DNA of 64,000 bases from Candidatus Latescibacterota bacterium (GCA_965248265.1 CBDFJF010000001.1:704001-768000), one strand, 5' to 3'; positions 1,180-58,425 are shown, counted from the first letter of the stretch. Program-made: numbers and translations. The notes: generated from the letters alone by a model not told the origin.

Positions 1180-1208
1180 TGCCCATCGTTTGCCCACTCC
1201 GAAGGTCG
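1180..1208 (+). repeat. 29-bp 11-7-11 site #1
   Basis: tgc ccatcgtt-TGCCCAC-tccgaagg tcg. Confidence 0.7.
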
Positions 1209-1289
1209 CTTTCAATCCACTTGCCACTGTCCCGTTCACTTCTCAGATTCGCTGTCACACCGGCCCAACACTTTGGTAAGGAGGGCAAA

Positions 1290-1949
1290 ATGAGACGAGT
1301 TGCCTGTCTTGCATTTACCATGTGTGCGTTCTCTTGCCATGGCGAGAAACCCGAGACCGTACTCACAGTTGTTGAACACCACGAGCCGGATCGAGTTGTG
1401 GATACAGAACTGGGAACCTTGACGCTTGCGGATCAATCTTGGGGTTTCCAGAAGCATATCGAGGACGATGGGCAGCCTTTGGAGGTGTTCTACCGAGCCG
1501 AGGTGTCTATCGAACTTGACGAGAAGGCGGAGGGATTTGAGGTGGTCGTTCCCTATGAGATTTCTGTCCAAACCTCCTCGAGGGCACAGCAGAATTCGGA
1601 AACCAAGTCCCAGGGGGCGAGCCTTGAACCCGATGCTCCGCCTCGTGGTCTTGCATTAACGAACGCTACCTCGTTTCGGGATTCTCTCTCGCGAAACCCT
1701 CTGTGGCGCGGAATACCTCGTTTCAGCCCAAGGACGGGGCCGGGAGGCATGTCCGGAGGCATGGGCTTCGGGTCCCGAAGGGTGATCCTTAAGCTCGACG
1801 CGCCATGGGCTGAGGCGAGAACGACGATAGAGTTTGCAGGGTCGGTCAGTGATCCTGCGTTAGCTACGTTGCTTGATTCCCTCTCGATCGATTTTCACGA
1901 GCCCCTCTTGTTCCCTGCAGGAACCACGAACTGGGCTCGCAGCCAATAG
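1290..1949 (+). CDS. Hypothetical lipoprotein
   Basis: AGGAGG RBS; signal peptide ending in AFSC. Confidence 0.7.
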   Translation: MRRVACLAFTMCAFSCHGEKPETVLTVVEHHEPDRVVDTELGTLTLADQSWGFQKHIEDDGQPLEVFYRAEVSIELDEKAEGFEVVVPYEISVQTSSRAQQNSETKSQGASLEPDAPPRGLALTNATSFRDSLSRNPLWRGIPRFSPRTGPGGMSGGMGFGSRRVILKLDAPWAEARTTIEFAGSVSDPALATLLDSLSIDFHEPLLFPAGTTNWARSQ

Positions 1950-1995
1950 CATGCTCCCCCACGCCGCCTTTCACATCCGGCTAGGGGAGACACCC

Positions 1996-2024
1996 CGCCC
2001 GTCGTTCAGGTAATGCGATGACCG
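1996..2024 (+). repeat. 29-bp site #2
   Basis: cgc ccgtcgtt-CAGGTAA-tgcgatga ccg. Confidence 0.8.
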
Positions 2025-2034
2025 GGAATGGGCC

Positions 2035-2553
2035 ATGAACAGGTCGCAGCTGGCTGCACAGATCAGCGCCCGGTCCCGCCTGAACGGCGACTTCCTCCTT
2101 CGTTCCGGCGCTCGAGCCACCGAGTACTTCGACAAATACCTCTTCGAGTCGGAACCAACAATACTGCGGTGCATAGCCCAGCATATGACCAAGCTGGTGC
2201 CACCAGAGACAGACGTCCTCGCTGGCTTGGAGTTGGGAGGTGTGCCGATTGCGACAATGCTGAGCCAGGAAACCGGCCTGCCAGCCTACTTCGTGCGCAA
2301 GAGGGAGAAGCAGTATGGCACATGCCGTCTGGCTGAAGGTGGCGAAATCAAGGATCGTTCCGTGCTCGTGGTGGAGGACGTTGTGACCTCTGGCGGACAG
2401 ATCGTGTTGTCCGTCCATGACATGCGCGGTTTAGGGGCCATCGTTGATACCGCGATCTGCGTCATAGACAGGGAGAGCGGCGGAGTTGACACCCTCGCTG
2501 CTGAGGGAGTAAGTCTCACTTCCCTCTTCTCCATGAGCGAGTTACCTGCCTGA
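2035..2553 (+). CDS. pyrE: Orotate phosphoribosyltransferase (short type)
   Basis: GDFLLRSG..YFDKY, VRK..KQYG, PRPP motif VVEDVVTSGG. Confidence 0.85.
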   Translation: MNRSQLAAQISARSRLNGDFLLRSGARATEYFDKYLFESEPTILRCIAQHMTKLVPPETDVLAGLELGGVPIATMLSQETGLPAYFVRKREKQYGTCRLAEGGEIKDRSVLVVEDVVTSGGQIVLSVHDMRGLGAIVDTAICVIDRESGGVDTLAAEGVSLTSLFSMSELPA

Positions 2554-2587
2554 GACTAACAAATTCACAACTAGCTGAGGAATCCCG

Positions 2588-4123: not shown

Positions 4124-4145
4124 AGAGCTTTTCAGAGGCCATAAC

Positions 4146-4174
4146 GGTCCCACGGATTCACAAACTGATGGGCG
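4146..4174 (+). repeat. 29-bp site #3
   Basis: ggt cccacgga-TTCACAA-actgatgg gcg. Confidence 0.75.
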
Positions 4175-4181
4175 TCGGTTC

Positions 4182-6264: not shown

Positions 6265-6287
6265 TACTCCATGCCGACAATTCGCGA

Positions 6288-6316
6288 TGTCCGTCAGACA
6301 CAGAGTCCGATGACCG
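6288..6316 (+). repeat. 29-bp site #4
   Basis: tgt ccgtcaga-CACAGAG-tccgatga ccg. Confidence 0.85.
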
Positions 6317-6485
6317 CCCTATCCGCCGGCTCGCCCGTTCCGCCAAACGATACCCGTGGAAAGCCGGGGCTTTGTTTCGTCTCCGAGCCTGATTACTTTG
6401 AAATAGAACCGCGACTTGCTACCGATATTATATATGTAGCCCCTTTCCGAACACGCATTCTCCCGCCGTATGAGGAACGACTCTC

Positions 6486-7529
6486 ATGGCTCAGTATGAA
6501 GACCGCAACGAAGACGGCCAGGACGAGGACGAAGAGGCCGGAATCCCAGCCATGCAGAAGATCGCCATTCTCTTCGTCGCTCTCGGGCAGGAGACCGCCG
6601 GTGAGGTGATGAAGTTCCTCACGGACTACGAGATCGAGGAGATCACTCAGTCCGTCGCCAATCTGAAGAACGTCAGCGTAGAGCAGCAGGACAGGGTGAT
6701 GGAGGAGTTCGAGCAGCACCTCCTCGCCGGAGAATGGGTGAGCACGGGGGGAATGGACTTCGCGCGCGGTGCGCTGGAACGTGCGGTGGGACCGCGCAAG
6801 GCACAGGAGATTCTGGATCGGGTCGCCAGCACCACCACCTCGGGTTTCTACATGCTCAAGAACGTCGCTCCTGAGCAGATAGCCCCCTTCATTTCCCACG
6901 AGCATCCGCAGACTATCGCCCTGATTCTCTCGCAGCTCGATCCGGCGCAGGGCGCCGGCATTCTTAGCAACCTGCCGGAGCGCATGCAGTCAGACGTGGC
7001 CTACCGCATCGCCACCATGGAGAACATCACACCGGCCATCCTCAAGGAGATCGAGGAGGCACTTGAAGCCTCGCTGCGCGACATCCTGGGCGGCAACCAG
7101 GATGTGGGTGGTCCCGGAGTGGTCGCCGACATGCTCAACCTGACCGGTTCGTCGGTGGAGAAGAACGTGCTGGACCAGATGGACGCCCAGGATCCCGAGG
7201 TGGCCGAGGCCGTGCGCAACCTCATGTTCACCTTCGCCGACATCTCCAAACTGACGGACCGTGAGTTGCAGGTACTGCTGCGGGAGGTGGATCAGAAGGA
7301 TCTCGTCGTCGCGCTCAAGGCGGCCGAGGAAGAGCTGAAGGACAAGATCCTCGGCAACATGTCCGAGCGTGTGCGCACGTTCATTACGGAGGAAATGGAA
7401 TTTCTCGGTCCGATGCGCCTCAGCGAGGTAGAGGAAGTTCAACTGCGCATCGTCCAACAGGTGCGGCAGCTCGAGGAGCAGGGCCAGGTGACGATCGTAC
7501 GCGGCGACGCTGACGACTCCTTCGTGTAG
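6486..7529 (+). CDS. fliG: Flagellar motor switch protein FliG (orphan)
   Basis: EHPQTIALILS, GGPG, MFTFAD, NMSER, VEEVQ..IV. Confidence 0.92.
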   Translation: MAQYEDRNEDGQDEDEEAGIPAMQKIAILFVALGQETAGEVMKFLTDYEIEEITQSVANLKNVSVEQQDRVMEEFEQHLLAGEWVSTGGMDFARGALERAVGPRKAQEILDRVASTTTSGFYMLKNVAPEQIAPFISHEHPQTIALILSQLDPAQGAGILSNLPERMQSDVAYRIATMENITPAILKEIEEALEASLRDILGGNQDVGGPGVVADMLNLTGSSVEKNVLDQMDAQDPEVAEAVRNLMFTFADISKLTDRELQVLLREVDQKDLVVALKAAEEELKDKILGNMSERVRTFITEEMEFLGPMRLSEVEEVQLRIVQQVRQLEEQGQVTIVRGDADDSFV

Positions 7530-7714
7530 CAGACCTGGCGCGGCACAGTCGATCAAATCAGACTCGAAAGATCGGATAGGAATAGGCAGCCAGCGCGTAC
7601 GACCTGGATCGGGTGCACCTCACGTTGAGCTTCTCTCCATAACTTCCTGCACGCATATAGCCGAGATCCAGATCTCGTGAGGAGATCCTCAACTTCTGAC
7701 TGGCGATCTTGGCA

Positions 7715-7743
7715 TGCCCATCGGAGACAGAATGCGATGGGCG
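7715..7743 (+). repeat. 29-bp site #5
   Basis: tgc ccatcgga-GACAGAA-tgcgatgg gcg; lies between convergent genes. Confidence 0.85.
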
Positions 7744-7897
7744 GGAGTGTAGGCCAGCTCTCCTGCAAGCCGCCCAGACCATGGCCAAGAGGACCTCTGA
7801 CTGTCGCCGCAGTCCGGAGGCCCTTTCCGGCACCAGCACGGGGACGATGGCTGGTTTTTGGTAGGAGAGCCCACCTCTGCGAGGGTGGGCGCCAATG

Positions 7898-11035: not shown

Positions 11036-11055
11036 CGTCAGCAGCGCGTCGTGGT

Positions 11056-11084
11056 TGTCCGTCGGCGACAGAAACTGATGGTCA
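11056..11084 (+). repeat. 29-bp site #6
   Basis: tgt ccgtcggc-GACAGAA-actgatgg tca. Confidence 0.85.
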
Positions 11085-11301
11085 TCTCTCTTGTGCCTGT
11101 TTTAGAACGCCTCGATCTTGGTGGGAAGCGGCCCGATTGGAGGATCGACATGAATCGTTTACGCGCCATAGGGCTGCGAAATCAATCTGTTCACGCAGGT
11201 GATATTACAATGCTGGAACTGCTCGAACGAGCACGGCGTGTAACCCGTTCGTGAGCATAGTCCTCGCCCAACTCCCTCCTGCGCCACGGCGGGGGCGTTG
11301 C

Positions 11302-11330
11302 CGTCCGTCAGGTCCTATGTCTGATGGGCG
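11302..11330 (+). repeat. 29-bp site #7
   Basis: cgt ccgtcagg-TCCTATG-tctgatgg gcg. Confidence 0.8.
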
Positions 11331-11482
11331 GTCGAAATGATGGTTTCGTCTACGGTCGGAACTTTGTGTCCGAACCAACGTCAATTCAGCGAGCCACATG
11401 ATCCTACACTCTGATTGGCTGACACCTTCCTTTTGGCCCAAGAGTTCCCCACACATATGCCTACCAAGCCTGGCGCTGATAG

Positions 11483-12865: not shown

Positions 12866-12985
12866 GCAGCTCAGGAATATCACGGATACGGAAGATATCC
12901 CTGGTGGGGCTGACGCAGATTCAGGCAGGGTTGCAGAGTGCGTCGTGAAGCCAGCAGCGATTGGCTCATTGTTGCTGCGTCATAG

Positions 12986-13014
12986 CGACCATCACCTCCA
13001 TACTCCGAGGCGCG
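12986..13014 (+). repeat. 29-bp site #8
   Basis: cga ccatcacc-TCCATAC-tccgaggc gcg; lies between convergent genes. Confidence 0.8.
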
Positions 13015-13019
13015 CATCC

Positions 13020-18620: not shown

Positions 18621-18878
18621 GATCCTCGCCTTTCATGCTCACTGCGCCGCAGCAAACCCCCATGTCCCGAACCGGTGGAACTCCACGCCGTAGTCGAATC
18701 CCGAGCCTCTCATCCGGCATCTCCGTCGAGGGTGGGCTCAAACCCTTGAGGGAATTGCACCGCTCGAAAGACCGTGCCCGCTGGCTTGTGGCCTGCGGCG
18801 GCGGACGCCAGAGCCATCAGGATTGCGGTGCGGATGCGTATAGTTGTCATAAGCGAATTCCATCAGTGCGGGGAAACC

Positions 18879-18907
18879 CGATCATCGGTTGCTCAGTCTG
18901 ACGTTCA
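18879..18907 (+). repeat. 29-bp site #9
   Basis: cga tcatcggt-TGCTCAG-tctgacgt tca. Confidence 0.8.
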
Positions 18908-18973
18908 CCGATTCTGCCATGTCCGACGACTTCGACAAGGCGGTTGTCACAACCGGCCCGATTGGCGGGCGGA

Positions 18974-20725: not shown

Positions 20726-20925
20726 TTCTCTCTGTCCTTGCGAACTGCGGAGTCCTGATCTGATTCCCTCTTGGTCGGTCTTCTTCGACCCTGCCTTCAA
20801 CGTACCTCTCTGACAATGCCTTACGCAACAACAAATGGGCCTCAGCCCGTACTTCTACGGATGTCACAGCGGCCACGAACATGATATATTGGGCTGAAAT
20901 GCGGATGGTTTCAGCCTTTGATTCT

Positions 20926-21099
20926 ATGCAGAGAATTGACCGCGAATCAGTTGAAAGAGCAGCGAGGCTCTACAAGACGAACATAGAGGCCAGCCAGGCC
21001 TTGGGGATGCATCCAACTGCATTTGGCAGAGCGTGCAGGAAGTATGGGATCGAAACGCCTGGTGCGAGGAAGATCAGATTGCGAAAGCGGGCATGTTGA
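20926..21099 (+). CDS. Small basic HTH-like protein whose 3' end abuts the intron
   Basis: ERAARLYKTNIEASQALG...FGRACRKYGIETP. Confidence 0.6.
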   Translation: MQRIDRESVERAARLYKTNIEASQALGMHPTAFGRACRKYGIETPGARKIRLRKRAC

Positions 21100-23133
21100 G
21101 TAGCCGGGGCTAGTCACCTAGCCCCAGCCCTCACCAGAGCCCAGCGAGCAGATTTCCCGCACTGGGCTCCTCCGTTAACACGTCTCGCGGTTAAGAAAAC
21201 CAGATCGATACGACAATTCGAGGTTGCGGTAGCGGATACTGCCGAAGTAAGCCTCGATAGTATCTCGCCCATGTGAGGCGCGATCGCTGGCTACGGCGAT
21301 TGAGCCACTTGTACCACGCCATCACTGCTGCGGATGTGAATAGGCTTACGCTGCGCCCATTCCCACTAATACCGAAGTAGTTGATGTGGCCCCGGATGCG
21401 TCGTACGAGGTCAGCGTGTTGCTCGGGGATCGGCCAATGGCGGTGTCGACGACAGAGTCGATATAGCGCCTGTACTGATCGCCTGAGCCGATCACGCCGC
21501 GTCTTGCTCGTCAGCACCCATCGCCCCGTCCGGGCCCGTTGCCAATACCACGTGAAGCCCAGAAAGTCGAAGGTACCTGGCCCCTTGCCCTTGATCTGCG
21601 CCTGTGATGGCCGCTCAAAAGGGATGAGCCGGGTCTTGTCCGGCTGCAGGGTCAGTCCGTATTTGTTCAGCCGCTTGCTCAGCACTTCCATCACCCGCTC
21701 TGCATCCTCCGGCAGTTCGAAACCAATGATGAAATCATCGGCGTATCGGACCAACGTTGCTCTACGACGCAACCGCGGTCTGATCTCGACTTCAAACCAC
21801 TCATCAAGGACATGATGCAGGTAAAGGTTGCCAAGCAGCGGCGACAAACAGGAGCCCTGTGCGGTGCCACGGTCCGGCGTCGAAAATTCCGCACCGTCCA
21901 GCACCCCAACGTGCAAGCACTTCCCTACGAGTCGGGTGATCGACCCATCGGGAATCCGCTCCTGGAGAAACTCCATCAGCTTGGATCGATCCAAACTGTC
22001 GAAGTAGGATTGGATATCCGCCTCCAGAATGACCTTCGCCTCCCCGTTCATCACCACCCGATTCAACACCTTCAGGGCGTCATGGGCACTCCGTCCCGGC
22101 CGGAAGCCATATGAGCAGTCACGAAAATCCTGCTCGTAGACCGCCGCCAACACCTCGCGTAACGCTTCCTGGACAATCTTGTCCTCGAAGCACGAGATGC
22201 CGATGGGACGGGTCTTCTTACCCTTACCGTCCTTGGGGATGTGGACTCTGCGAATGGGCTGGTGGCGCCACCGCTTACTGCGAAGCCGCTGGTGCAGATC
22301 CTGCAGATTGCTCTCCAGATCCTGCCCATACTGCTCCTTGGTCACGCCATCCACCCCCACTGCGGCGCTCGGCTTTTGATGGTCGAACGCCCTCCGCAGC
22401 GCATCTACATCGATCAGGTGTGCGAGCGAGTGAAACTTGGCCTGCGGCTCTCGTCTCGCTCTTTCCGCTACTTCCAAAAGTCCCGGTGACATGGACTCCG
22501 AAGTCAATGCATCGGTCATGGTGCCCTCCTGAAGTTCGTATCAACACGGACCGCCTTGGCTCCGCCGGGTCCGGTGCCAACCGTTCCCCGACTTCACAGC
22601 TACTACACGGTCCTCCGACTCCCTTACTCCGTCGGCCGCCGCTCCGGTTCCCCTCGCAAGCGACCTACCACGGTGCCCACGCTTGTTCTTGTTCGGCCAC
22701 GCATGCGTGTGCTGACGCGCGGCGCGTCGGAGACTTCATCACCGGCTCTCCCGATCACCGGAATCTCCCGTGGAGAGACAAGGGCCTCCCAGGTTGCTGG
22801 ATCATCCTCTGCGAGCGTGCCCTGGTCGTATCACACCCCGCCGGGGTGTCATCGCCTCGCCCAATAGCGCCGACAACACTGCTGCCTTCAGGTACAACGG
22901 CACCCTCGGCTATCCCGGAACGTTCTGCATTTCAGGGCCGCCAATCGCACGGCCCGCTCGCTCGCTGCCCTACTGCTTCGCCCGTCCCGTTACCGGGACG
23001 CACGCAAGGGCTCGCTTCTGGCCTGCTGGGCTCAGCTCTAGCCAGGCGGGCTTTGCACCCGCGGGACGACTAACCGTATTTCAAGAAGTATCACCTCCTT
23101 CTATTCCAACAGACCAGCCTAGCCTGGTCGCAT
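21095..23133 (-). mobile_element. Group II intron (~2.04 kb)
   Basis: 5' end ATGCGACCAGG; domain V GAGCCCAGTGCGGGAAATCTGCTCGCTGGGCTC; domain VI hairpin; 3' end ...CTCAAC. Confidence 0.9.
21191..22519 (-). CDS. ltrA: Group II intron reverse transcriptase/maturase without endonuclease domain
   Basis: AVGVDG, RPIGI..EDKIVQ, SYGFRPGRS, GTAQG..LSPLL, RYADD, FDFLGF. Confidence 0.95.
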   Translation of the reverse strand: MTDALTSESMSPGLLEVAERARREPQAKFHSLAHLIDVDALRRAFDHQKPSAAVGVDGVTKEQYGQDLESNLQDLHQRLRSKRWRHQPIRRVHIPKDGKGKKTRPIGISCFEDKIVQEALREVLAAVYEQDFRDCSYGFRPGRSAHDALKVLNRVVMNGEAKVILEADIQSYFDSLDRSKLMEFLQERIPDGSITRLVGKCLHVGVLDGAEFSTPDRGTAQGSCLSPLLGNLYLHHVLDEWFEVEIRPRLRRRATLVRYADDFIIGFELPEDAERVMEVLSKRLNKYGLTLQPDKTRLIPFERPSQAQIKGKGPGTFDFLGFTWYWQRARTGRWVLTSKTRRDRLRRSVQALYRLCRRHRHWPIPEQHADLVRRIRGHINYFGISGNGRSVSLFTSAAVMAWYKWLNRRSQRSRLTWARYYRGLLRQYPLPQPRIVVSIWFS

Positions 23134-37059: not shown

Positions 37060-37159
37060 TGCATGAGTCTGTCATGAGGAATTCTGCTGCTCGCTCTCGG
37101 CTGTTTCACCCGAGCCGATGCAGAAATCCTTCGAGGAGGCCGCAACTGAGGAGCAGAAA

Positions 37160-38986: not shown

Positions 38987-39112
38987 CACGCTACGTCGCC
39001 GGCCGGCCCTGACGCAGGCCGGCTGCGCATCTTCGACGCAGACCAGCTTGCTTCGCCTCTAGGCGCGTTGGTCTGACGGCAACACCAACCTCGTGCTTTC
39101 AACGAGCGTTGA

Positions 39113-39141
39113 TGACCGTCAGTTCCTAAATGTGATGGACG
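39113..39141 (+). repeat. 29-bp site #12
   Basis: tga ccgtcagt-TCCTAAA-tgtgatgg acg. Confidence 0.85.
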
Positions 39142-39153
39142 GTAACCACTGCC

Positions 39154-41153: not shown

Positions 41154-41198
41154 CACCCAGTTGCCGCTGCTGTCGGATTGCGACCCGAGCGACGCCGC

Positions 41199-41227
41199 CG
41201 ACCCACGGATCCATACAGTGACGCCCG
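41199..41227 (+). repeat. 29-bp site #13
   Basis: cga cccacgga-TCCATAC-agtgacgc ccg. Confidence 0.8.
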
Positions 41228-41290
41228 GGCGCTGCGTGCGAAACGGCGCGATGTGGTTTGACTAGGAAGTCCCGGGAGAAGGAGACGACG

Positions 41291-42817
41291 ATGGCAGAAG
41301 CAACTCAGAAATGGTCTGTCGGGACGCGCAAACAGCTGCTGTTTGACCATCGCTTCGTCGAGTCGTCCGCGGGTCTGCAGTTCACGGTCAATCCCCCCCT
41401 TCAGCGGACACCCATCAATCTGCCCTCTCTCAGCGCTTTTCACCCCGGCTGTTTCCCCACGGTACTGGATGTCGACCAACGTCTGTGGATGTACTACCAC
41501 ATGACTCCCAAGGAAACGCGTGAGCCTGATGTCCTAGCACACATGTACTGCCTGGCCTACTCGGACGATGGCATCGACTGGGAGCTGGCGCAGGTGGATA
41601 GGTTCGAGGTGGCGGGGTTGGCTCGGAACAACGTGGTCATGCCCGGTGCGAGCGGCACGGTGTTCCTCGATCCCAGGGAGACGTGCGGCTGCAGATTCTG
41701 GTTCGCGGGATCGATGAGCGAGCGCACCGAGCCGCCCTTCTGGGACGAGGCCCGGGATACGTACTTCGGCTATTACGACCAGGGCCGCGGAGTTCACGGC
41801 GCGGTGTACCTGCTTCATTCAGAGGATGGCATGTCGTGGCGCCGACTGCGCAGCGGAGTCGTGGTGCCATTCCGCTCCGACACGAATAACCAGGTCCTCT
41901 ACGATGCCGGCGCCGGCGCCTACGCTGCGTATCTGCGCGGCGCGTCGCCTGAGCCAGGGAGAAGGCGGACGGTCGTCCGTGTGACCTCGCCCGCGCTGAC
42001 GCAGTTGCCCTTCGATTTTGTTGAAGACACTACGTTACCGAGAAGCCCGATGGGGTTATACGACCGGATACCGCCGCAGTGCGCCCCGGAGGTCATGACG
42101 GGTGACGAACGTGATCCGTCAGCCACTGACGTGTACACGCCCTGCGTCAACCCCTACGAATGGGCGAGCGACGCCACCTTTGCCTTCCCGGCTGTGTACC
42201 GGCATTACGACGGGCAGGACAGCCATGGTCGAGACCATCGAGGGCAGCACAGGAACGACGGCCCAGTGGAGGTGCAGCTCGCCGTGAGCCGTGACGGCGT
42301 CACGTTCGATCGGTTCCGCACGCCTTACGTGGGCCCCGGGTTGATGGAGGAGCCGCAGCTCGGGGGAACTGTCTACATGGGCGTAGGGCTGGTCCGGCGG
42401 GGGAGCTTTATCTACCAGTACTACACCGAGAGAGCGTGCACGCACGGCTTCGCGGACCCGGAGATGCGCATTTGGCAAGCGAAACAGCGTCTGGATGGTT
42501 TTGTATCGGTGGATGCGGGTTCGGAGGGCGGACATCTCGTCACGCCGCCGATCGAGTTCGAAGGCAACCGCCTGCAGCTGAACATCGACTGCGGCGCCAT
42601 GGGCGAAGCTTGGGTCGAGCTCCAGGATGAAACCGGCAAGCCGTTACCCGGGTACACGTTCGATGACGCGGTGTCGGTCGACCGGAACGGTGTCGCGCAG
42701 GAGGTCTGGTGGCGGAGAGGCCCGGATGTCGACTCACTGAGTGGTAGGCCTGTCCGGTTGAAGATCAAGATGCGTTCGGCGAAGCTCTACGCGTTCCAGT
42801 TCGTGGAGGCCAGCTGA
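41291..42817 (+). CDS. Beta-propeller glycoside hydrolase-like protein
   Basis: SDDGIDW, SEDGMSW, LAVSRDG, RLDGFVS, KLYAFQF. Confidence 0.78.
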   Translation: MAEATQKWSVGTRKQLLFDHRFVESSAGLQFTVNPPLQRTPINLPSLSAFHPGCFPTVLDVDQRLWMYYHMTPKETREPDVLAHMYCLAYSDDGIDWELAQVDRFEVAGLARNNVVMPGASGTVFLDPRETCGCRFWFAGSMSERTEPPFWDEARDTYFGYYDQGRGVHGAVYLLHSEDGMSWRRLRSGVVVPFRSDTNNQVLYDAGAGAYAAYLRGASPEPGRRRTVVRVTSPALTQLPFDFVEDTTLPRSPMGLYDRIPPQCAPEVMTGDERDPSATDVYTPCVNPYEWASDATFAFPAVYRHYDGQDSHGRDHRGQHRNDGPVEVQLAVSRDGVTFDRFRTPYVGPGLMEEPQLGGTVYMGVGLVRRGSFIYQYYTERACTHGFADPEMRIWQAKQRLDGFVSVDAGSEGGHLVTPPIEFEGNRLQLNIDCGAMGEAWVELQDETGKPLPGYTFDDAVSVDRNGVAQEVWWRRGPDVDSLSGRPVRLKIKMRSAKLYAFQFVEAS

Positions 42818-42910
42818 TTAATGGGCGCGACCGGGAGTGACGGCTCGGCTCTCGCTTGTGATGTGTGGGAGGTACGGACGGCCTTGCCGGGAGGGATAGG
42901 GCCGGCGTGG

Positions 42911-42939
42911 CGACCATCGGACTATCAGTGAGATGCTCG
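42911..42939 (+). repeat. 29-bp site #14
   Basis: cga ccatcgga-CTATCAG-tgagatgc tcg. Confidence 0.85.
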
Positions 42940-43230
42940 GTTCGTGTCGCATACCGTATCCGTACGTAGTCAAGAACCTCGTGACGAATAGGAGGTACAA
43001 AAGCCCTTTTTCGATGGATCAGGGGCTGCGCGCTGGGGTTTTGAGGGGATTGGTATACACCCTAGGCGAGGGCGGCGAGATATTCTCCTCCCTATCGATC
43101 TGGCAACCTGGGGAACGACGAGCCACGCGTTTCGATCGAACAGGCACATTACCTATTTTTCTTGTGACGGCTGCTTGGGCGAGAGCAGCTTGAACCCTTC
43201 GAGCCGCATTAGGCCATGCTCGCGGGGTTT

Positions 43231-43350: not shown

Positions 43351-43389
43351 ATGACCGGCGTGGCCGACACGCGGAGGTTTGTTGAACCG

Positions 43390-44025
43390 ATGCACAAAAC
43401 ATGGAGATGGTCCGCCTCGGGGTCGGATTTCGTCCTGCCTCACGAGGAGATACAGAAGATCTGCCTGCACGCGGGTCTGGCGGGAATCGAGGGCATGGGC
43501 AGGCTGTTCCCCGATCAGTCGCACGGAGTGCTCGAGGAAATCGCCGCCGGGTACCGCGCCTGCGGACTCGAATTGGACAGCTTCCACCTACCGGCGGCGA
43601 TCGAGAACGACATCGCCTGCTTTTACGAGACACAACGACGTGAAGCCGTCGACGTATCGCGACACTGGATGGAGTGTGCGGCGGCACTGGGCTGCCGAGT
43701 CGTCATCCAACACTCGACCACCAACCGCAACAACGCCGAGGTCGAGGGGTTGGATCGCTACGTCGCGCAGATGGGCAAGAGTCTGGAGGTGCTGCTGCCG
43801 GCAGCGGCCGAACTCAATCTCACCGTCGCGATCGAGAGCTTGCCTCCGGGTGAGCGCGGCGGTAGCTTCAGCGCCCGTCCCGAACATTTCGAGCGCATTA
43901 TCGCCGAGTTCGCCCACCCGAACCTCGGATTCTGCGTGGACACGGGGCATGCCCTGATGGCCGGTGGGCCAGATCGCGCCCACGATTTCCTCGATGTGAT
44001 GGCCCCCCACATGGCGGCCTTCCGC
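43390..44025 (+). pseudogene. Sugar phosphate isomerase/epimerase, C-terminally truncated
   Basis: SFHLP, VAIE, CVDTGHA; breaks at HMAAF before the H-x-x-D motif. Confidence 0.7.
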
Positions 44026-44317
44026 CCCTCCGTGAGACCCGAGAGAAGACAGAGGGAACCGACTTTGAGATCTCCTGGCGTGGGGATGAGATAATAGGCA
44101 TCTGCCCAAACAGCGATTTTTTGGTTCTACCCAACGGCTCAGGCGTGCGGGTAGAGTCAGGCCCGCCTTGAACGTCACTTGTAGCAGCAATGTGGACAAG
44201 ACCGGGAGTAGCTCGGCCCCAGGCGATGTGAGATGCACTGGCGGATAGCTTGCACATAGGGACGGGGCGAGTTTCAACACGCAGAACCCGCGTCGCGTTT
44301 GTAAGGAGGAGGACCGA

Positions 44318-45931
44318 ATGCAAGACCCTGTAGCTCATAACATCTCAGACGAGCATCGAGAGTCGCCGCCGTCCTACAAGATCATCTACAACTGGGATGG
44401 CGGCACCTTCTGGAGGTCCGAGTACCCCCAATCGTTGGAGCGCTGGCTAGAGAAGACCTACGCCCCAATCAAGGACACCCAGGTGGGCGCCCTCTTCTGG
44501 TGCGTCGGCGCCGACCATGCCGACTGGCCGTCGCCGACCATGGAGATGGTGGGAGACTCGGTGGGTCGGGTCTACCCGTCCGTCATCGCCATGCGCACGG
44601 CCGAGAACATCCGCGTCAAGTTCGAGGGCGATCAGGAACCCTACAACGCCCTTGTCGAGCGCGGACACGAGCTCGGCGTGGACGTCTTCGCGTCCGTTCG
44701 CATGAACGACAACCACTTTTACGGCCTGACTCCATCCCAGGTGAAGGGCGGGAAGACGTATGGGCTGACCCAGATTCGCAGGGACCACCCCGAGTGGCTG
44801 CTCGGTGGCGACCACGAGTTCGCCGCATGCTGGAACTACGCCATACACGGCGTCAGGAAGTACCGGCTCCAGCACATCACCGAGGCGTGCAACCTGGCGG
44901 ACTGGGACGGCCTCGAGCTGGACTGGCAGCGCCACGGCTACCACCTTCGGTACGACATGGCTTACCGCCTCCGCTACACCATGACCGACATGGTCCGTGC
45001 CGCCCGTAAAGTCACGGACCGGATCCAGGAGCAGCGTGGTCGCCCGTTCTACCTGGCCGTGAGGGTCGCGGCCACCATCGAGGCCTGCCGCAATATCGGC
45101 TACGACATTCGCGCCTGGGTCGATGAGCGCCTCTGCGACTACGTAATAGCAGGAGGCGTCTCCGGAACCGACCCCGGGGTCGAGGTTGAGGCCTTCGCGG
45201 AGATGCTCGATGGTGCTGGGGCCAGGTTTTACGGTGGATTCGACAGCGACGGAAGACAGCAGACACGGCGGCTGGTCACACGCAGCACGTTCCGCCACGG
45301 CTTCTTTCGCGCCACCGCCCAAGCATACTGGGACCGCGGCGTCGACGGGATATACACCTTCAACTGGGGCGCCAACGAGACCACTCGGCGAGACCTGCTC
45401 ACTACCATCGGCTCACCCGAGACTCTGTCGGGACTCGACAAGATATACGCCTCGCTGCGCCGGGGAGGTGGGACGGGCGGCCGCGCCACCAACGACCGCA
45501 TCTACGGTGAGACGCCCGTGACGCTACACGAAACCCTGACCGGCATCGGCCCCACCTTCGAAGTGCCTGTCCACGACGACGTCGTCCGGGAGGCCAATGC
45601 GGGCAGGCTGGCGAGCGTCGAGCTGCACGTCGAGATGGGACACTTCTCCCCTACTGGGGACGAGGTAGAGATTGCGCTCGACGGGACAACGCTGACCGAC
45701 GTCCAGGTCCGTAGCGTGGCGGGCCCCGATCCCGACCGCCCCTCCGAGGACAAGGTCGGAGTCACCGACGTGGATGAAAATAGCTGGCTGGTATGCCCAC
45801 TGGAACCCGTCCAGGCCGGCCGAGGCCTCCATCAGGTGGATGTGCGTCTGGTCAAGCGTGACGCTCGAATCGAGCCGCCTCTGTCGGTGGAGAATGTGGA
45901 GGTCTACGTCACATACAGGGCGAAAGGCTGA
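44318..45931 (+). CDS. GH-like TIM barrel protein (paralog of 16986-18620)
   Basis: IYNWDG, SVRMNDNH, DGLELDWQR, GIYTFN. Confidence 0.78.
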   Translation: MQDPVAHNISDEHRESPPSYKIIYNWDGGTFWRSEYPQSLERWLEKTYAPIKDTQVGALFWCVGADHADWPSPTMEMVGDSVGRVYPSVIAMRTAENIRVKFEGDQEPYNALVERGHELGVDVFASVRMNDNHFYGLTPSQVKGGKTYGLTQIRRDHPEWLLGGDHEFAACWNYAIHGVRKYRLQHITEACNLADWDGLELDWQRHGYHLRYDMAYRLRYTMTDMVRAARKVTDRIQEQRGRPFYLAVRVAATIEACRNIGYDIRAWVDERLCDYVIAGGVSGTDPGVEVEAFAEMLDGAGARFYGGFDSDGRQQTRRLVTRSTFRHGFFRATAQAYWDRGVDGIYTFNWGANETTRRDLLTTIGSPETLSGLDKIYASLRRGGGTGGRATNDRIYGETPVTLHETLTGIGPTFEVPVHDDVVREANAGRLASVELHVEMGHFSPTGDEVEIALDGTTLTDVQVRSVAGPDPDRPSEDKVGVTDVDENSWLVCPLEPVQAGRGLHQVDVRLVKRDARIEPPLSVENVEVYVTYRAKG

Positions 45932-46255
45932 TGTGGTGATGGCCTCGATCGCGTTTTGAGTAGGTGCATGAAGACCTGGTTCAGCTGTCCGGGAGAGCAG
46001 TAGATTGGCCTGATATCTCCGTAGTTCTTGGGGTCCAAGAAACACAATATTTACGGTCAGCTGAACTGTCGCGTTACAAAGAAGGACAATAGAAGGAGGC
46101 CCACCAGCATAGGGGCAGGGCTCTGGCGGTTATGCTATCATGCGAGGCTGAACGGTGTCAAGCAACACGCAGCCGACTCGGGGGCACGCGAAACAGTGGG
46201 GAACGCACGATAATTTCCGTTAAACGGAGTCTCTAATGCGAAACCGCGATGGTCA

Positions 46256-47497: not shown

Positions 47498-47539
47498 CTT
47501 GGTGATCGCATGGTCGCAAGGTGGATCGTTGCCAGCCTA

Positions 47540-47568
47540 CGCCCATCACCTTCACAATCCGATGATCG
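47540..47568 (+). repeat. 29-bp site #15
   Basis: cgc ccatcacc-TTCACAA-tccgatga tcg. Confidence 0.85.
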
Positions 47569-47640
47569 GCATTTCATCTTCATAGAGCGCGATCCTCTTT
47601 GCCGCGCACTGCAGCGCCTCGGCAACCGAACTGGGAATCG

Positions 47641-48849: not shown

Positions 48850-48870
48850 GCGCTCGAGTCCAGATCACGC

Positions 48871-48899
48871 TGCCCATCACACACAGAGTGCGATGCTCA
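48871..48899 (+). repeat. 29-bp site #16
   Basis: tgc ccatcaca-CACAGAG-tgcgatgc tca; fills most of the 52-bp gap between convergent genes. Confidence 0.85.
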
Positions 48900-48901
48900 G
48901 A

Positions 48902-50761: not shown

Positions 50762-51669
50762 AGCGCGGCTCCTCCGTCATCGAGGCCCGGACGCACGTAC
50801 TCAATGAAGCACTCCTCGAGACTCAAGCCCATCACCTCCACAATCTGACACCCTGCATCTGTGATCGCTTTCGCTTTCTCGTCGTCAAACCCAATGACCG
50901 TTAGCATGCGCTGCTCACCGTCACCCTGCACCGCTGTCACACCCTGCATACCGCTCAGGTTCGAAACGCCATTGTGAGTCTTTACCAGGACTTTCTTGAT
51001 CGTCTGCTTGATTGCATCCACTTCGTCACACACCAATAGCTTGCCGCCATCCAGAATCGCCACCCGGTCTGCCACCCTTTCCACCTCGTCCACCATGTGC
51101 GAAGACAGGAACACGGTGCGGCCCTCACCCTGGATGATCTCGATGATGCTCTCGAGGAAGTCGCGTCGGACGAGCACGTCGAGTCCGGTGGCAGGCTCGT
51201 CGAGTATCAAAAGAGGCGGCCGGTGCCCCATCGCCAGGGTGAGTGCCAGCTGCGCGTTCATGCCCCTGGAAAGGTTCTTGACCTTGGCCTCCGGATCGAG
51301 TCCAAACCTGGCCAACAGGTCATCGATGAGTTTCCCATCCCAGTTATCGTAGAACCCCCCGGTGAACCAGGCGATTTCCCGGACTTTCATCCATCCGTAT
51401 AGCGTCGGGACCTCACCGACGTAGCCTACCGCGCGCTTGATGGCGACGTCGTCCGAGTGCGGCTCCTTTCCGAGCACGCGGCAGTGACCATCCGATGGCG
51501 AAATCAGATTCAGCAGCATCTTGATCGTCGTCGTTTTACCAGCGCCGTTGCGCCCGAGAAAACCGAACACCGTCCCTGCATCGACGTTCAGAGTCAGGTC
51601 ATCGACCGCGGTATGACTGCCGAACCTCTTGCTGAGATGCTCTATTGCGATTGCCGTGTTCGCACTCAT
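50758..51669 (-). CDS. ABC transporter ATP-binding protein
   Basis: GRNGAGKTT, LSRG, LILDEP. Confidence 0.93.
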   Translation of the reverse strand: MSANTAIAIEHLSKRFGSHTAVDDLTLNVDAGTVFGFLGRNGAGKTTTIKMLLNLISPSDGHCRVLGKEPHSDDVAIKRAVGYVGEVPTLYGWMKVREIAWFTGGFYDNWDGKLIDDLLARFGLDPEAKVKNLSRGMNAQLALTLAMGHRPPLLILDEPATGLDVLVRRDFLESIIEIIQGEGRTVFLSSHMVDEVERVADRVAILDGGKLLVCDEVDAIKQTIKKVLVKTHNGVSNLSGMQGVTAVQGDGEQRMLTVIGFDDEKAKAITDAGCQIVEVMGLSLEECFIEYVRPGLDDGGAAL

Positions 51670-52097: not shown

Positions 52098-52119
52098 CTG
52101 TCGATTCCAGCTGCAGTGT

Positions 52120-52139: not shown

Positions 52140-52316
52140 GTAACTCAGCAAATGGCCGATGTCAACACTTAACTTCAAGACCCGGGCAATTTGACGCGCT
52201 AGGCCGAGCTCACGTATGTGCTCAAGCACCATCATGGCACGGGTCCAGAGTCCTCGCCGGATCGAACGATCAGCTGTCGTCGCTGCCGAACGAGCAGGCG
52301 CTACCACAGTCCAGGA

Positions 52317-52345
52317 TGCCCGTCAGTGACAGAGTCCGATGACCG
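52317..52345 (+). repeat. 29-bp site #17
   Basis: tgc ccgtcagt-GACAGAG-tccgatga ccg (26/29 identical to site #4). Confidence 0.85.
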
Positions 52346-52409
52346 GTCAGCGCAGCCGAAACGGAGTGACACTCCTGAGGCTCTGCCATTGTTCGCTCAA
52401 AAGGTTGAA

Positions 52410-53994: not shown

Positions 53995-54328
53995 GTCACG
54001 CTCCTTAGTTTGAGAGAATACGAGGACATGCGGCGGAGACCCGTCGGTACGATTAGTACACAAAAAAGCCGCCCGGTCAGGACGGCCTGTATTTCAACGA
54101 CTTAGGCTTCTGAGCCTAGTGCTCTCCTATCCCGGTGTCACTCGTACTGTGTATGTGTTGTCGCATGTCTTGGACATAACTCACCTCCTCCCTCGGCCGA
54201 GGGTGCTGTCACATTCGGGTCTATCTTATGGTACTTCAGGCGTGATAGTCCGGCAAGAAAAACTTTCATCTGCACTCGTAGCGTTCGTCGGTGACTGCTG
54301 CTCGGATTCTCACAGGGCACAAGCTGTA

Positions 54329-54357
54329 CGACCCACGTTGACAGAATCCGATGGTCA
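54329..54357 (+). repeat. 29-bp site #18
   Basis: cga cccacgtt-GACAGAA-tccgatgg tca. Confidence 0.85.
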
Positions 54358-54461
54358 TTCTCGCGGCAAGAGGCGCGGTTCATGCTTGTTATTGTTCAAA
54401 CGGGACATATTTTGAACTGGCAGCGTGTTGACCGTTCAGATTCGTGCTCGGGGAAACCATA

Positions 54462-55582: not shown

Positions 55583-55674
55583 TAAGGTGAGGCTTCCTCT
55601 CTAGCAGCACGGGTTGCACGTAGTCGTCGTCGAACTACACGCCGCCTGGGGCTCCGGCTGTTGGCAGGTCTGAG

Positions 55675-55703
55675 CGACCCACGGATCTACAGTCTGATAC
55701 TCG
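55675..55703 (+). repeat. 29-bp site #19
   Basis: cga cccacgga-TCTACAG-tctgatac tcg. Confidence 0.8.
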
Positions 55704-55952
55704 CTTCGTCTTCCCGTAAATCTTGCCCACTGGCAGTTACGTACAATCAGCTCCCCGTCGCCCCTTCATACCGAAAAGATGATCTTATAGGGATTCAGAT
55801 ATCGTTTTGCATTGTCATGAGCGGCTACTAGCTTGGGTATAGAGGCTGGGGGTCTTGAGGTGACAGTGTCGACCAGTTCGCTGGGCTCACGGCCCAGGAT
55901 CCTCAGTCTCGCTTTAATTACAGATCTTGTCGATACAAGGCACGAGGATACA

Positions 55953-56585
55953 GTGACGGACCAAGCTGATTATCTATTGCCCACGTGGGCACCCCGAGTT
56001 CGCAAAGCAAAGATCGCTCAACTCTATAAGACGGCTGGGCTAGGCATCATCGACTCTGATATCGTCAATGAGGTGGGGTATGCGTTCTATGAGCGATGTT
56101 GCAGTATTCTCGAAGCGAGTTCGGCGGTTAGGGGGAAAGTGCATTGCCCAAACTGCAACTTCATTATTGAGCACGTTCCGTGGGAGAGCGAGGTGGTAGC
56201 ATGTGCGAAGTGCGATTGGGAGTGCCCTTGGGAGGTGTACCAGAAGACCTACCAGAGGAAGAACCTGACTGTGGGCGGTCTGAGGCCCTTTATTGAAGAA
56301 TACGTCGATAAGTTTCCCAAAGAGCGGTCTCCTTCGAACCGGCTGGTTCTCATTGACACGCTAATTCACTGTTTCCACTGGGGTGGTGGTCGGCCAGGCA
56401 GCGCGAACCTCATTGAGGGGAAACTGAAAGACATCATGCCGTTTCTCGACAAGCTGAGTTACGGAGACCAGATACCTGGAGGCGTCGAGGCGACCCGCGA
56501 TGAATGGCGACAAAAGTGGCAACAGAACAAGTGGAAGACGCGCGTGGAGCAGATGACTGCTCGGAAGAGGAGCAAGCCGAAATAG
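55953..56585 (+). CDS. Hypothetical Zn-ribbon protein
   Basis: CPNC..CAKC; GAGG RBS before GTG. Confidence 0.7.
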   Translation: MTDQADYLLPTWAPRVRKAKIAQLYKTAGLGIIDSDIVNEVGYAFYERCCSILEASSAVRGKVHCPNCNFIIEHVPWESEVVACAKCDWECPWEVYQKTYQRKNLTVGGLRPFIEEYVDKFPKERSPSNRLVLIDTLIHCFHWGGGRPGSANLIEGKLKDIMPFLDKLSYGDQIPGGVEATRDEWRQKWQQNKWKTRVEQMTARKRSKPK

Positions 56586-56640
56586 ATCCGCCAACGACGT
56601 ACGAAGGGGCACCCCTTCGTTCTGGTAAAAGACATTACGC

Positions 56641-57396
56641 ATGGAATCGCACATCGACGCAGACTACTTAGACGCTGAGAAATACGATCAGTACTACGGA
56701 ACGTACGCCGAGCCCCACGCTTGGCTGGTCGATCTACTACGAGACCGGGACACCATCATGGAATTGGCATGTGGTACGGGTCGAATTGCGATTCCTCTGG
56801 CCCAGCGCGGATTGTCTGTGACCGGCATAGATTATTCCAAACCCATGTTGGACCTCGCCCGCAAGAAAGCGACAGAGACCCATGTGGAGATCCAGCTGGC
56901 GCTGTGCGATATTCGCAACTTTGATCTTGGGAAGAAATTCGGATCCATTCTCCTTCTTTCGAATGCACTCTGGCACGTCCATGAGCGCTCAGACTTCCAA
57001 GCGTTAATGCAATGCGTACAGCGTCATTTGGAGCCCGATGGTCTCTTTGTCCTCGATGTTTTCGTTCCCAATTTGGACATCCTCAATCGTGATCCACAAC
57101 AACGCTATCCATTTAGTACCTACACGGAACAGGAAACGCGTGAGCAGGTCGAAGTGACCCAAACTCATATCTATGAACCGGACACTCAAATATCTAGAGT
57201 CGTGCAATACAAAGGTATGACAGACGAAATAATCGGCGGCCTCAACCTTCGCATGTACTTCCCACAGGAATTGGATGCCCTTTTGGCGCACAACGGAATG
57301 ATGATTGACGAAAAGTTCGGGAGTTGGGACCGAGCGCCCTTCGATGCGAATTCTAGACACCAGCTATACTTTTGCTCTTCTCGTGGCTCTATATAG
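56641..57396 (+). CDS. Class I SAM-dependent methyltransferase
   Basis: ELACGTGR, GIDYS..ML, HLEPDG. Confidence 0.9.
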   Translation: MESHIDADYLDAEKYDQYYGTYAEPHAWLVDLLRDRDTIMELACGTGRIAIPLAQRGLSVTGIDYSKPMLDLARKKATETHVEIQLALCDIRNFDLGKKFGSILLLSNALWHVHERSDFQALMQCVQRHLEPDGLFVLDVFVPNLDILNRDPQQRYPFSTYTEQETREQVEVTQTHIYEPDTQISRVVQYKGMTDEIIGGLNLRMYFPQELDALLAHNGMMIDEKFGSWDRAPFDANSRHQLYFCSSRGSI

Positions 57397-57448
57397 CAAT
57401 TTTTGAAGGTGCCGCCGATGGCGATACCGACGCCGACCAAATCTCTAG

Positions 57449-58252
57449 CTAACCCCGCGGCAGGTGGCCTTCGAGAAAGGCGATGACGAGCCGTTCGAAC
57501 GCCTCCGGCTGCTCCTCGGGCACGGTGTGGGAGGCGTCCTCCACTTCGACCAGCTCGGCGGCGGCAACCCGTTCGGCGATGAGCTCATGGTCCTTCGTGG
57601 GCGTGGACCAGTCCTCGGTGCCGCTGACCAGCAGCGTCGGACACCGGATGAGGTGCAGCTGGTCCCGGATGTCGTACTCGAAGATACCCCGAGCGTTGGC
57701 AGCGTATCCGAGGGACGGGTTGGCGGCGAACATCCTCCGGTAGAGCTCGACGGCGTCGGGATTCGCGGCGCGGAACGAATCGCTCAACCAGCGCTCCAAC
57801 CCCGGTTCGACGAGAGGCCCCATTCCGACGCTCTCCGCGGTCTCGATCCAGTGAGGGATGATTTCCCGCGTGCGATCTTCCATGTGGGCGGAGGTGCAGC
57901 ACATCACCAGCGCGCCGATGCGCTCGGGCTCGTCGATGGCCAGCTGCATGGCGGGGAAGCCGCCGAAGGCGTGGGCGACTATGGCGGCCTGGCCGATGTC
58001 GAGTGCATCCAGAATCGCATGCAGGTCGTCGGCGTGGTCCTGCACTGTGATCTTGGAGCCCGGCGTGTCGACGGACTCGGACCGTCCCATCCCACGCAGC
58101 TCGTAGACGACGGTGCGGTAGTCTCTGGCGAGCACGGGAGCCAGGTGGCGCCACAGGTCGCGGTTGAGTCCGTTACCGTGAATGCAGACTACGGGGTAGC
58201 CGCTGCCGGACTCGAATACCTGGAAGCGGGCGTCGTTGGCGATGATCTCCAT
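57449..58252 (-). CDS. Alpha/beta hydrolase (PcaD-like) with AHAFG at the nucleophile elbow
   Basis: IHGNG, LRGMGRS, PTLLVSGTED, ASH. Confidence 0.82.
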   Translation of the reverse strand: MEIIANDARFQVFESGSGYPVVCIHGNGLNRDLWRHLAPVLARDYRTVVYELRGMGRSESVDTPGSKITVQDHADDLHAILDALDIGQAAIVAHAFGGFPAMQLAIDEPERIGALVMCCTSAHMEDRTREIIPHWIETAESVGMGPLVEPGLERWLSDSFRAANPDAVELYRRMFAANPSLGYAANARGIFEYDIRDQLHLIRCPTLLVSGTEDWSTPTKDHELIAERVAAAELVEVEDASHTVPEEQPEAFERLVIAFLEGHLPRG

Positions 58253-58396
58253 TGGGTCTGTTCCCCCTTCCGTCCCGGCACGCCTGGTAGATCTTGGAGG
58301 ACGCTCTCGAGAAGAGAGCACCAGGTCAAGGCGCGGGCGTCACGACATCTCCTTTCACCGGTTAACCGGAGAGGTGTCTGATAAGGTAGCCGTCAC

Positions 58397-58425
58397 CGAG
58401 CATCGCATCCATACTGCGATTCCCG
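58397..58425 (+). repeat. 29-bp site #20
   Basis: cga gcatcgca-TCCATAC-tgcgattc ccg. Confidence 0.75.

Follow-up and report, generated by a model that had tools for sequence, protein, structure and literature searches.

The 64,000-nt window analysed here (C1:704001-768000 of the source genome, a Candidatus Latescibacterota bacterium; GCA_965248265.1, CBDFJF010000001.1) lies within a long array of ~31-bp sites, each composed of two near-symmetric arms and a 7-bp spacer. The spacers of these sites fall into ~19 exact classes, numbered 0 (CCCTGAA) to 18 (GTCTTGC), which keep a conserved ascending order in tandem units. This order had gone unremarked in an earlier, sequence-only reading of the window, in which polar spacers drawn from a small reused vocabulary were described. 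Judging from the sequence features presented below, the sites are probably heterospecific crossover sites, at which co-linear islands would integrate and gene blocks would be deleted or exchanged. The assembly comprises 7.32 Mb in two contigs, C1 and C2, with 59.6% G+C; positions without a contig name refer to the window.

Alignment of 19 window sites yielded the consensus nYGnCCRTCRnn, 7-bp spacer, nnYGATGGnCRn, which spans ~31 bp and is longer than the motif given in the sequence-only reading. All 19 sites have G at -9, C at -3, G at +11, and C at +17. The arms form a degenerate palindrome, and the spacer is not palindromic. Complementarity between the two arms of a site amounts to 6.62 out of 12 positions, compared to 6.60 with shuffled partners (P=0.45), and the arms are barely more alike within a spacer class than between classes (0.59 vs 0.52 for the outer left arm). 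Due to this lack of within-site covariation, each arm appears to fit a protein consensus independently, as in dif, lox, or FRT sites. Nothing seems to select for a stem, as expected for duplex protein-binding sites, which these sites are predicted to be. Inverted arms, an asymmetric overlap of 6-8 bp, and an adjoining gene for a catalytically complete recombinase correspond to the definition of a core-type site of a tyrosine recombinase. Two other readings of the motif were rejected. An anticodon loop or another RNA loop was dropped for lack of a U at loop position 2 and of arm covariation, and a promoter (-10-like) element, prompted by a CAnAnT pattern, cannot account for the exact classes or their order.

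All window sites are read on the + strand. In the first part of the window these are TGCCCAC (class 1, 1179-1209), CAGGTAA (class 2, 1995-2025), TTCACAA (class 3, 4145-4175, spacer at 4157), CACAGAG (class 4, 6287-6317, spacer at 6299), GACAGAA (class 5, 7714-7744 and, as its same-class neighbour, 11055-11085; spacers at 7726 and 11067), TCCTATG (class 7, 11301-11331), TCCATAC (class 8, 12985-13015, spacer at 12997), TGCTCAG (class 11, 18878-18908), a weak GTCCTGA site (class 13, 20740-20770, arms 9.3 bits) with a flank homologous to C1:680027-680398, a GTAGCAG site (class 14) split by an intron, and GTGATAT (class 17, 26821-26851). Further to the right follow TCTACAG (class 6, 37030-37060, spacer at 37042), the unclassified TCCTAAA with two mismatches to class 7 (39112-39142), TCCATAC (class 8, 41198-41228, spacer at 41210), CTATCAG (class 9, 42910-42940, spacer at 42922), TTCACAA (class 3, 47539-47569, spacer at 47551), CACAGAG (class 4, 48870-48900, spacer at 48882), a degenerate TCCACAA site (50825-50855), GACAGAG with one mismatch to class 5 (52316-52346, spacer at 52328), GACAGAA (class 5, 54328-54358, spacer at 54340), TCTACAG (class 6, 55674-55704, spacer at 55686), TCCATAC (class 8, 58396-58426, spacer at 58408), CTATCAG with an unrelated, degenerate right arm (class 9, 59890-59920, spacer at 59902), and GTCTCAA (class 12, 63387-63417).

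Every coordinate and spacer named in the sequence-only reading was found in the sequence, including the recurrence of GACAGAA and TCCATAC (three times each), of CACAGAG, TTCACAA, TCTACAG, and CTATCAG (twice each), and the single GACAGAG; the number of sites rose from 20 to 23, with 50837 and 59902 scoring below the arms-only cut of the scan described below. Its description of the spacers as polar also stands: position 6 is A in 22 of the 23 window sites, T was found at position 2 in 6 of them, and A occupies position 6 in 15 of 19 classes and in 87 of the 118 sites that were classified and oriented genome-wide. The arm variant CCCACG, reported as exclusively left-sided, occurs at the sites with spacers at 4157, 41210, 54340, and 55686, and CGTGGG was never found on the right; among the 118 oriented sites the ratio is 9 left to 0 right. 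Orientation was likewise claimed to be independent of gene direction, which is borne out by 48882 and 52328, both flanking minus-strand genes, and by 58408 and 59902, which flank a minus-strand gene.

For the genome-wide scan, a position weight matrix (PWM) of the arms only was symmetrised by entering each site in both orientations, which makes it blind to polarity, and the reversed, non-complemented genome served as control. At >=16 bits, 120 sites were obtained compared to 12 in the control, and at >=14 bits 150 compared to 47. In the window itself, 7 places have at most one mismatch to the 12 fixed arm positions, versus 0.4 in 5 shuffles. The main array at C1 645-1020 kb holds 75 of the 150 arms-only sites (>=14 bits), i.e., half of the sites in 5% of the genome. 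Smaller clusters are located at C2 3.889-3.931 Mb (C2a), C2 3.034-3.061 Mb (C2b), C1 175-178 kb, and C1 365-369 kb. The 56 hits remaining outside all clusters are near the control count of 47. Hence the sites cluster and are not spread over the genome.

Spacers are reused exactly. In the arms-only set (>=16 bits), 77 of 120 sites have a 7/7 spacer twin, compared to 1.6 expected from sets of random genomic 7-mers, and only 11 of 120 have their nearest spacer relative at one mismatch. In an orientation-blind test of the main array, a same-strand copy exists for 56 of 69 spacers and a reverse-complement copy for none (0/69), and all 80 classified main-array sites read '+'. The genome-wide tabulation of spacers proposed by the sequence-only reading thus gave exact reuse and a single polarity in the main array, and the reverse-oriented sites it had named as a contrary outcome were found nowhere inside the arrays; cluster C2b is reversed as a whole, its recombinase gene included. 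Among the 363 same-class pairs of the 118 sites, flank identity (13-72 nt) is 26-29%, compared to 25-26% between classes, and left flanks are at least 60% identical in 1.1% of the same-class pairs. Since same-class flanks remain at the between-class level, the classes are not copies of duplicated segments. Same-class sites have only the spacer in common.

The class order was fixed on C1 645-704 kb and then scored elsewhere against 20000 permutations. At C1 651972-702807 the series reads TGCCCAC, CAGGTAA, TTCACAA, CACAGAG, GACAGAA, TCTACAG, TCCTATG/A, TCCATAC, CTATCAG, TAATGAG, TGCTCAG, GTCTCAA, GTCCTGA, GTAGCAG, (TTGGAAG), TTGATGG, GTGATAT, and GTCTTGC, followed by a recombinase gene, and the window opens a second unit with the identical class series. 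In C1 704-1020 kb, 39 ascents, 8 ties, and 14 descents were counted among 62 sites, and in C2a no descent among 12 sites; in neither case did any of the permutations equal the observed order (0/20000; P<5e-5). Same-class neighbours exist, e.g., GACAGAA at 7726 and 11067. Class-0 sites in direct orientation bound the main array, beside tRNA-Glu, at ~649.3 kb, where the site is split by an intron, and at 1014358, and a further class-0 site opens C2a. Cargo in equivalent slots of different units is unrelated. What is kept between units is the recombinase gene, a gene similar to the helix-turn-helix (HTH) domain of ParB, a small open reading frame (ORF) upstream of the latter, and short stretches by the class-1 and class-14 sites.

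The genome contains 18 Phage_integrase matches, among them a group of four paralogs of ~280 aa with 82-83% identity. All four are intact and each is situated at a cluster end (C1:685721-686527, C1:703266-704105, C2:3930292-3931098, and C2:3033502-3034308). The second of these (P0001, 280 aa, - strand) reaches into the window with its 5' end (1-105) and scores 103 bits against Pfam Phage_integrase. Its best NCBIfam match is XerA_Arch with 122.4 bits (cut-off 220), followed by XerC with 99.1 (335) and XerD with 87.3 (330); among solved structures, an archaeal XerC-like protein (4a8e) is the closest. By these profile scores, the recombinase is a two-domain, Xer-like enzyme, yet no member of the XerC, XerD, XerA, XerH, or XerS equivalog families. 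The catalytic residues R148, K173, H229, R232, and Y264 are invariant in 21 family members, and H255 is nearly so. In three of the four copies, a class-18 (GTCTTGC) site is located 72-480 nt beyond the recombinase stop codon. The family comprises 277 proteins at E<=1e-20, many of them from marine metagenomes; the nearest recombinase among the other genomes searched is 59% identical, and a search of the ESM Atlas returned generic integrase clusters only. Recombinases of 82-88% identity are encoded in further public assemblies, together with RpoB of 96-98% identity, and the sources of the RpoB relatives assign them to Latescibacterota.

The GTCTTGC-class site by the recombinase stop codon abuts a second full site with spacer TGTTYGR in gene orientation. 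Such abutting pairs occur at C1:702780-702830, C2:3930160-3930215, and C2:3034400-3034460 with a common palindromic junction (GATGCTCGSYGAGCATC), and may represent a special double site at the unit end. The ParB-HTH-like gene of the window (143 aa, 87-518, - strand; PF17762, 34.3 bits) overlaps the recombinase start. It is also kept beside two other recombinase copies (C1:688151-688588 and C1:731512-731772, 70-86% aa identity). Further inside the window, a truncated recombinase of 108 N-terminal aa (27019-27345, - strand; 89-95% aa identity to the intact copies) is followed by a remnant of the ParB-HTH-like gene with its upstream region (27342-27772, - strand).

A one-orientation, cassette-like array beside a tyrosine recombinase gene, with a group II intron that in 5 of 6 copies homes into the bottom strand of its sites, recalls an integron, and the sites could then be attC-like single-stranded hairpins of a divergent integron. 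This is very improbable: the arms do not covary, and at ~31 bp the sites are shorter than attC, which measures 57-141 bp. Exact class-specific centres would be hairpin loops, which are not read in integron recombination. Integron-integrase models were not matched at their cut-offs either, with 75.9 bits for TIGR02249 (cut-off 265) and 36.7 for PRK15417 (cut-off 435), and the recombinase, as far as these models tell, is not an integron integrase.

Putative traces of exchange between arrays are visible in the right part of the window. Positions 58434-59929 are 98.4% identical to C2:3907684-3909179 and positions 63386-63747 are 98.3% identical to C2:3913195-3913556, both in C2a, whereas the DNA between the two shared segments, 3.5 kb in the window and 4 kb on C2, is mutually unrelated. 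The homology of the first segment ends 4 nt right of the CTATCAG spacer, beyond which the right arms are unrelated, so that this class-9 site forms the right end of the 98.4% duplicate. The second starts 5 nt left of the GTCTCAA spacer, where the left arms differ at 3 of 12 positions, and this class-12 site marks the left end of a 98-99% duplicate. This is the pattern that would be expected if the class 9-to-12 interval had been exchanged at two spacers. Genome-wide, 12 of 276 unique endpoints of intragenomic high-scoring segment pairs lie within 20 nt of a spacer centre, compared to 0.96% of random positions. Taken together, recombinase genes at the cluster ends, exact spacers, the lack of arm covariation, and homology breaks at spacers argue indirectly for sites of a tyrosine recombinase, as the sequence-only reading had proposed.

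The arrays could also be accretion scars, i.e., disused att cores of integrative elements stacked by tRNA genes, with an order resulting from ordinary segmental duplication of an ancestral array. Arrays indeed abut tRNA-Glu, tRNA-Thr, and tRNA-Asp genes: tRNA-Glu (C1:646463-646538) borders the main array on the left, tRNA-Thr genes at C2:3940225 and 3940370 are 9 kb from C2a, and a tRNA-Asp gene is located at C1:374334; within the window itself, ARAGORN detected no tRNA or tRNA fragment. Furthermore, many of the runs are incomplete, the majority contain no recombinase gene, a truncated recombinase copy exists, and insertion sequence (IS) elements and introns are scattered through the arrays. 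Neutral scars should decay, yet 77 of 120 spacers have exact twins and only 11 a relative at one mismatch, while arms and flanks are at background level. Flanks that arose by segmental duplication would be expected to share homology, and these do not; the four intact recombinase genes have kept their catalytic residues, and a pair of 98%-identical segments brackets a replaced block at two spacers. Accretion scars are therefore an unlikely explanation.

According to the preferred reading of the sites as heterospecific crossover sites, they would be duplex cores of the dif/lox type, each ~11-bp arm being bound by one monomer, with strands exchanged in the 7-bp centre. The enzyme would be the dedicated Xer-like tyrosine recombinase from the unit ends, with its four intact paralogs. 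Since the arm consensus is common to all sites, one enzyme could bind all of them, and the near-symmetric arms suggest a homodimer. In tyrosine recombinases, strand exchange needs matching centres; spacer classes would thus act as orthogonal addresses, and a site would pair within its own class only. We infer binding and cleavage of these sites by the recombinases, control of the reaction by spacer identity, and a cycle of integration, excision, and exchange.

The basic unit of this model would be ~40-55 kb long, carry classes 0 to 18 in a single order and orientation, and end with the class-18 site, the recombinase gene, and the ParB-HTH-like gene. A circular unit integrating at any class of a resident unit would produce the same order again, in tandem, and due to this the conserved order would be emergent. 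Recombination between same-class sites of neighbouring units would cause loss of the DNA between them, and the i-j block would be swapped if a unit integrated at class i and excision then took place at class j. Co-linear partner islands may reside within one cell or arrive by transfer. The outcome would be a tandem co-linear array in which gene cargo is replaced slot by slot. Such a model would cover the exact spacers and drifting arms, the uniform polarity, the order with its resets, same-class neighbours, terminal class-0 sites, and block replacement. It is tempting to go further and to regard the array as a natural multi-address platform, in which one Xer-like recombinase and ~19 orthogonal overlaps in fixed order make any numbered interval exchangeable without cargo homology, as a natural analogue of cassette exchange with heterospecific lox sites or of MultiSite Gateway; this stronger version we hold tentatively, as a proposal whose chances fall slightly short of even.

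Several observations weigh against recombination at heterospecific sites as the full explanation. The 14 descents and the many classes missing from runs are not producible by same-class recombination alone, and most order resets occur without a recombinase gene, a class-18 site, or a class-0 site. When read in reverse, C2b deviates from the order, with 3 descents over 8 sites (P=0.68), although the majority of these sites were called weakly or with one mismatch. The window site at 50837 is located in coding sequence, within the 3' portion of an ORF for an ABC ATPase; it may have arisen by chance or be a vestige of a former site. Several homology boundaries fall away from sites: the 98.4% duplicate begins on the left 20 nt beyond the TCCATAC spacer, at a place where no site exists in its C2 partner, and the right end at 63747 coincides with no site. 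No recombination product, circle, or deletion junction was observed; the listed joints, all from Logan contigs and with a shorter side of 20-57 letters, include no junction of two same-class sites and say nothing about excision. Missing classes and off-site boundaries are not all covered by the model, and ordinary deletions, site decay, IS elements, and introns are needed in addition.

The comparison with other organisms in part points in the same direction. The arms PWM revealed no array with these arms at the loci of recombinase homologs (37-59% identity): 6 hits were obtained in loci L014-L104 (588 kb) compared to 5 in the control, and single weak hits only in L105-L110. Two de novo palindrome screens at homolog loci gave nothing usable, and neither did a gapped-5-mer screen, which is uninformative because it missed even the motif of the window itself. 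In 168 genomes of the phylum, where the GACAGAA-site pattern has a background of about one hit per genome, only the source genome (G000) stands out, with 7 forward and 0 reverse matches. In five relatives, a degenerate arm pattern gave an excess in G019 (89 and 91 hits, control 31 and 33). Of its 180 matches, however, those listed (the first 100) are scattered and without vocabulary spacers, and the excess was dismissed as a composition effect. A scan of viral contigs yielded 22 single matches, none of which reached 12 bits on the arms PWM, and these were taken as chance. A site-like 31-mer with spacer CTCATAA is located outside the arrays at C1:2258249-2258279 and is nearly identical to positions 2749-2779 of L018 from G021, which belongs to another genus of the same family; there it lies ~470 nt upstream of a recombinase homolog of 38% identity.

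A further point against the preferred reading is that cluster orientation agrees with the sign of the local GC skew in 5 of 5 clusters. Judging from cumulative GC skew, replication starts near C1 2.96 Mb and ends near C2 3.49 Mb. The main array, the C1 175-178 kb cluster, and C2a have '+' sites where + strand skew is negative, and C2b, on the other replichore, is reversed. The pair at C1 365-369 kb is reversed as well and lies inside a block of locally inverted skew at 300-500 kb. The agreement is statistically weak and confounded with recombinase gene direction; a replication-linked constraint on array direction is possible. As an observation on its own, the C1 300-500 kb block, whose skew is opposite to its replichore and which contains the tRNA-Asp gene, suggests a large inversion.

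The agreement with GC skew also suits the view that the sites do not recombine at all and serve as operators or as partition or silencing sites of the ParB-HTH-like or another dimeric protein, or as replication-polar signals of the island. The ParB-HTH-like gene is predicted to be co-transcribed with the recombinase gene, the arms form a degenerate palindrome without hairpin covariation, and the sites are intergenic. A dimeric binder explains neither 19 exact centres, nor a fixed order, nor the strict polarity of an otherwise symmetric site, however, and leaves the homology breaks at spacer edges unexplained. Moreover, the orientation of single vocabulary sites dispersed over C2 does not match the replichore (4 '+' vs 2 '-') and the motif is absent from 95% of the genome, so that we consider non-recombining binding sites quite improbable. 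In particular, a chromosome signal resembling FtsK-orienting polar sequences (KOPS) or Ter, which the sequence-only reading had raised as a competing outcome, does not suit a motif limited to ~5% of the genome, even though cluster orientation fits the local GC-skew sign.

Integrons, Xer/dif, pdif, tRNA-island accretion, shufflons, and KOPS each differ from this array in at least one tested defining feature. Integron-like are a tyrosine recombinase gene ending a long one-orientation array of short sites that separate promiscuous cargo, and a group II intron homing into the sites. In contrast to integrons, there is no IntI, and ~31-bp duplex palindromes without arm covariation take the place of the folded attC; 19 exact centre classes in fixed order occur together with several recombinase copies, and the intervals are ~4 kb on average, often with several genes on both strands. 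Chromosome dimer resolution by Xer/dif has one terminus site per replicon, whereas here 118 sites form five clusters and scattered singles, and the main array (C1 0.65-1.02 Mb) is not at the terminus, the skew maximum being at C2 3.49 Mb. Sites of pdif modules alternate in orientation around the modules and use the host XerC/XerD. Common to Xer/dif, pdif, and the array are an Xer-like two-domain recombinase, arm-centre-arm sites of ~28-31 bp, and many sites that flank gene modules. Unlike in pdif, the recombinases are dedicated island paralogs and not the housekeeping XerC/XerD, the arms are near-symmetric around a 7-bp centre, all sites are direct, and the ordered spacer vocabulary is not known to have a counterpart there. 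The pdif (Xer-site-flanked) modules of Acinetobacter plasmids are described in PMC12907356 and PMC11705084.

Tandem integrative islands at tRNA genes include the tycheposons (10.1101/2020.12.28.424599). The arrays resemble these in adjoining tRNA genes, in tandemly stacked tyrosine-recombinase elements, and in their flexible cargo; they differ in that their cores are not tRNA fragments, in having ~19 different cores in each unit where such islands have a single att for each element, and in the conserved class order. From shufflons they are distinguished by the absence of inverted sites (0/69 main-array spacers as reverse complement). The logic would be that of engineered heterospecific lox, FRT, and att sets, with identical arms, orthogonal self-pairing spacers, and directional, position-specific block exchange. 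Those sets, used in recombinase-mediated cassette exchange and MultiSite Gateway, are laboratory designs. In the literature excerpts retrieved by our search, neither a natural counterpart of them nor a description of ordered heterospecific sites in a natural array was found.

If the preferred reading is true, the array would represent a third bacterial route, in addition to integrons and Xer-site modules, by which site-specific recombination builds and reshuffles large gene arrays. Positional addressing via orthogonal overlaps would be a principle which, within the same excerpts, was not found described for natural systems. It would explain how cargo turns over while the scaffold is kept in a 365-kb flexible island of an uncultured marine lineage, and ~19 orthogonal sites for one small recombinase would be useful in genome engineering.

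The intron in the arrays is a group II intron (Rfam RF02005, RF00029) with a reverse transcriptase ORF of 442 aa, and it resembles IIC introns homing into integron attC sites. Its window copy (21095-23134, - strand; reverse transcriptase ORF 21191-22519) has entered the left arm of the class-14 site between CAT and CG. It splits the site cleanly and without target duplication into an outer left-arm half (GCGGGCAT, 21087-21094) and a part with the inner left arm CGTT, the spacer GTAGCAG (23139-23145), and the right arm (23135-23157). Other full-length copies are located at C1:647276-649331, C1:655008-657063, C1:695941-697995, C2:3891536-3893611, and C2:783713-785763. In 5 out of 6 full-length copies the intron is situated within an array site, always on the bottom strand, and in three of these both halves of the target arm (nnCG^ATGG, bottom strand) have been preserved around the insertion. 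In addition, two IS-like elements of 1.3 kb occur in many copies at 89-100% identity, one at C2:3917613-3918925 and 12 other places, the other at C2:3899639-3900955 and 7 other places. One IS-like element is inserted ~40 nt right of a GTCCTGA-class site.

Among the cargo of the window, a complete FliG gene with N, M, and C domains (6486-7529, + strand) is located between two sites, and seven paralogous loci with 65-84% nucleotide identity occur elsewhere in the genome. A 757-aa leucine-rich-repeat ORF (24164-26437), matching LRR, PKD, and Por_Secre_tail domains and ending in a C-terminal sorting domain of the type IX secretion system (T9SS) type, contains an internal tandem repeat of ~330 bp with 97% identity (24632-25350, + strand). 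Contigs from two seawater runs of another study (X1 and X2) match positions 43361-46182 at >99% and diverge from the window after 46182, where no site is visible. An ORF of 519 aa without a Pfam match (41258-42817, + strand) has seven paralogs at 79-83% nucleotide identity, two of which (C1:745210 and C1:825041) are located directly right of TCCATAC-class sites.

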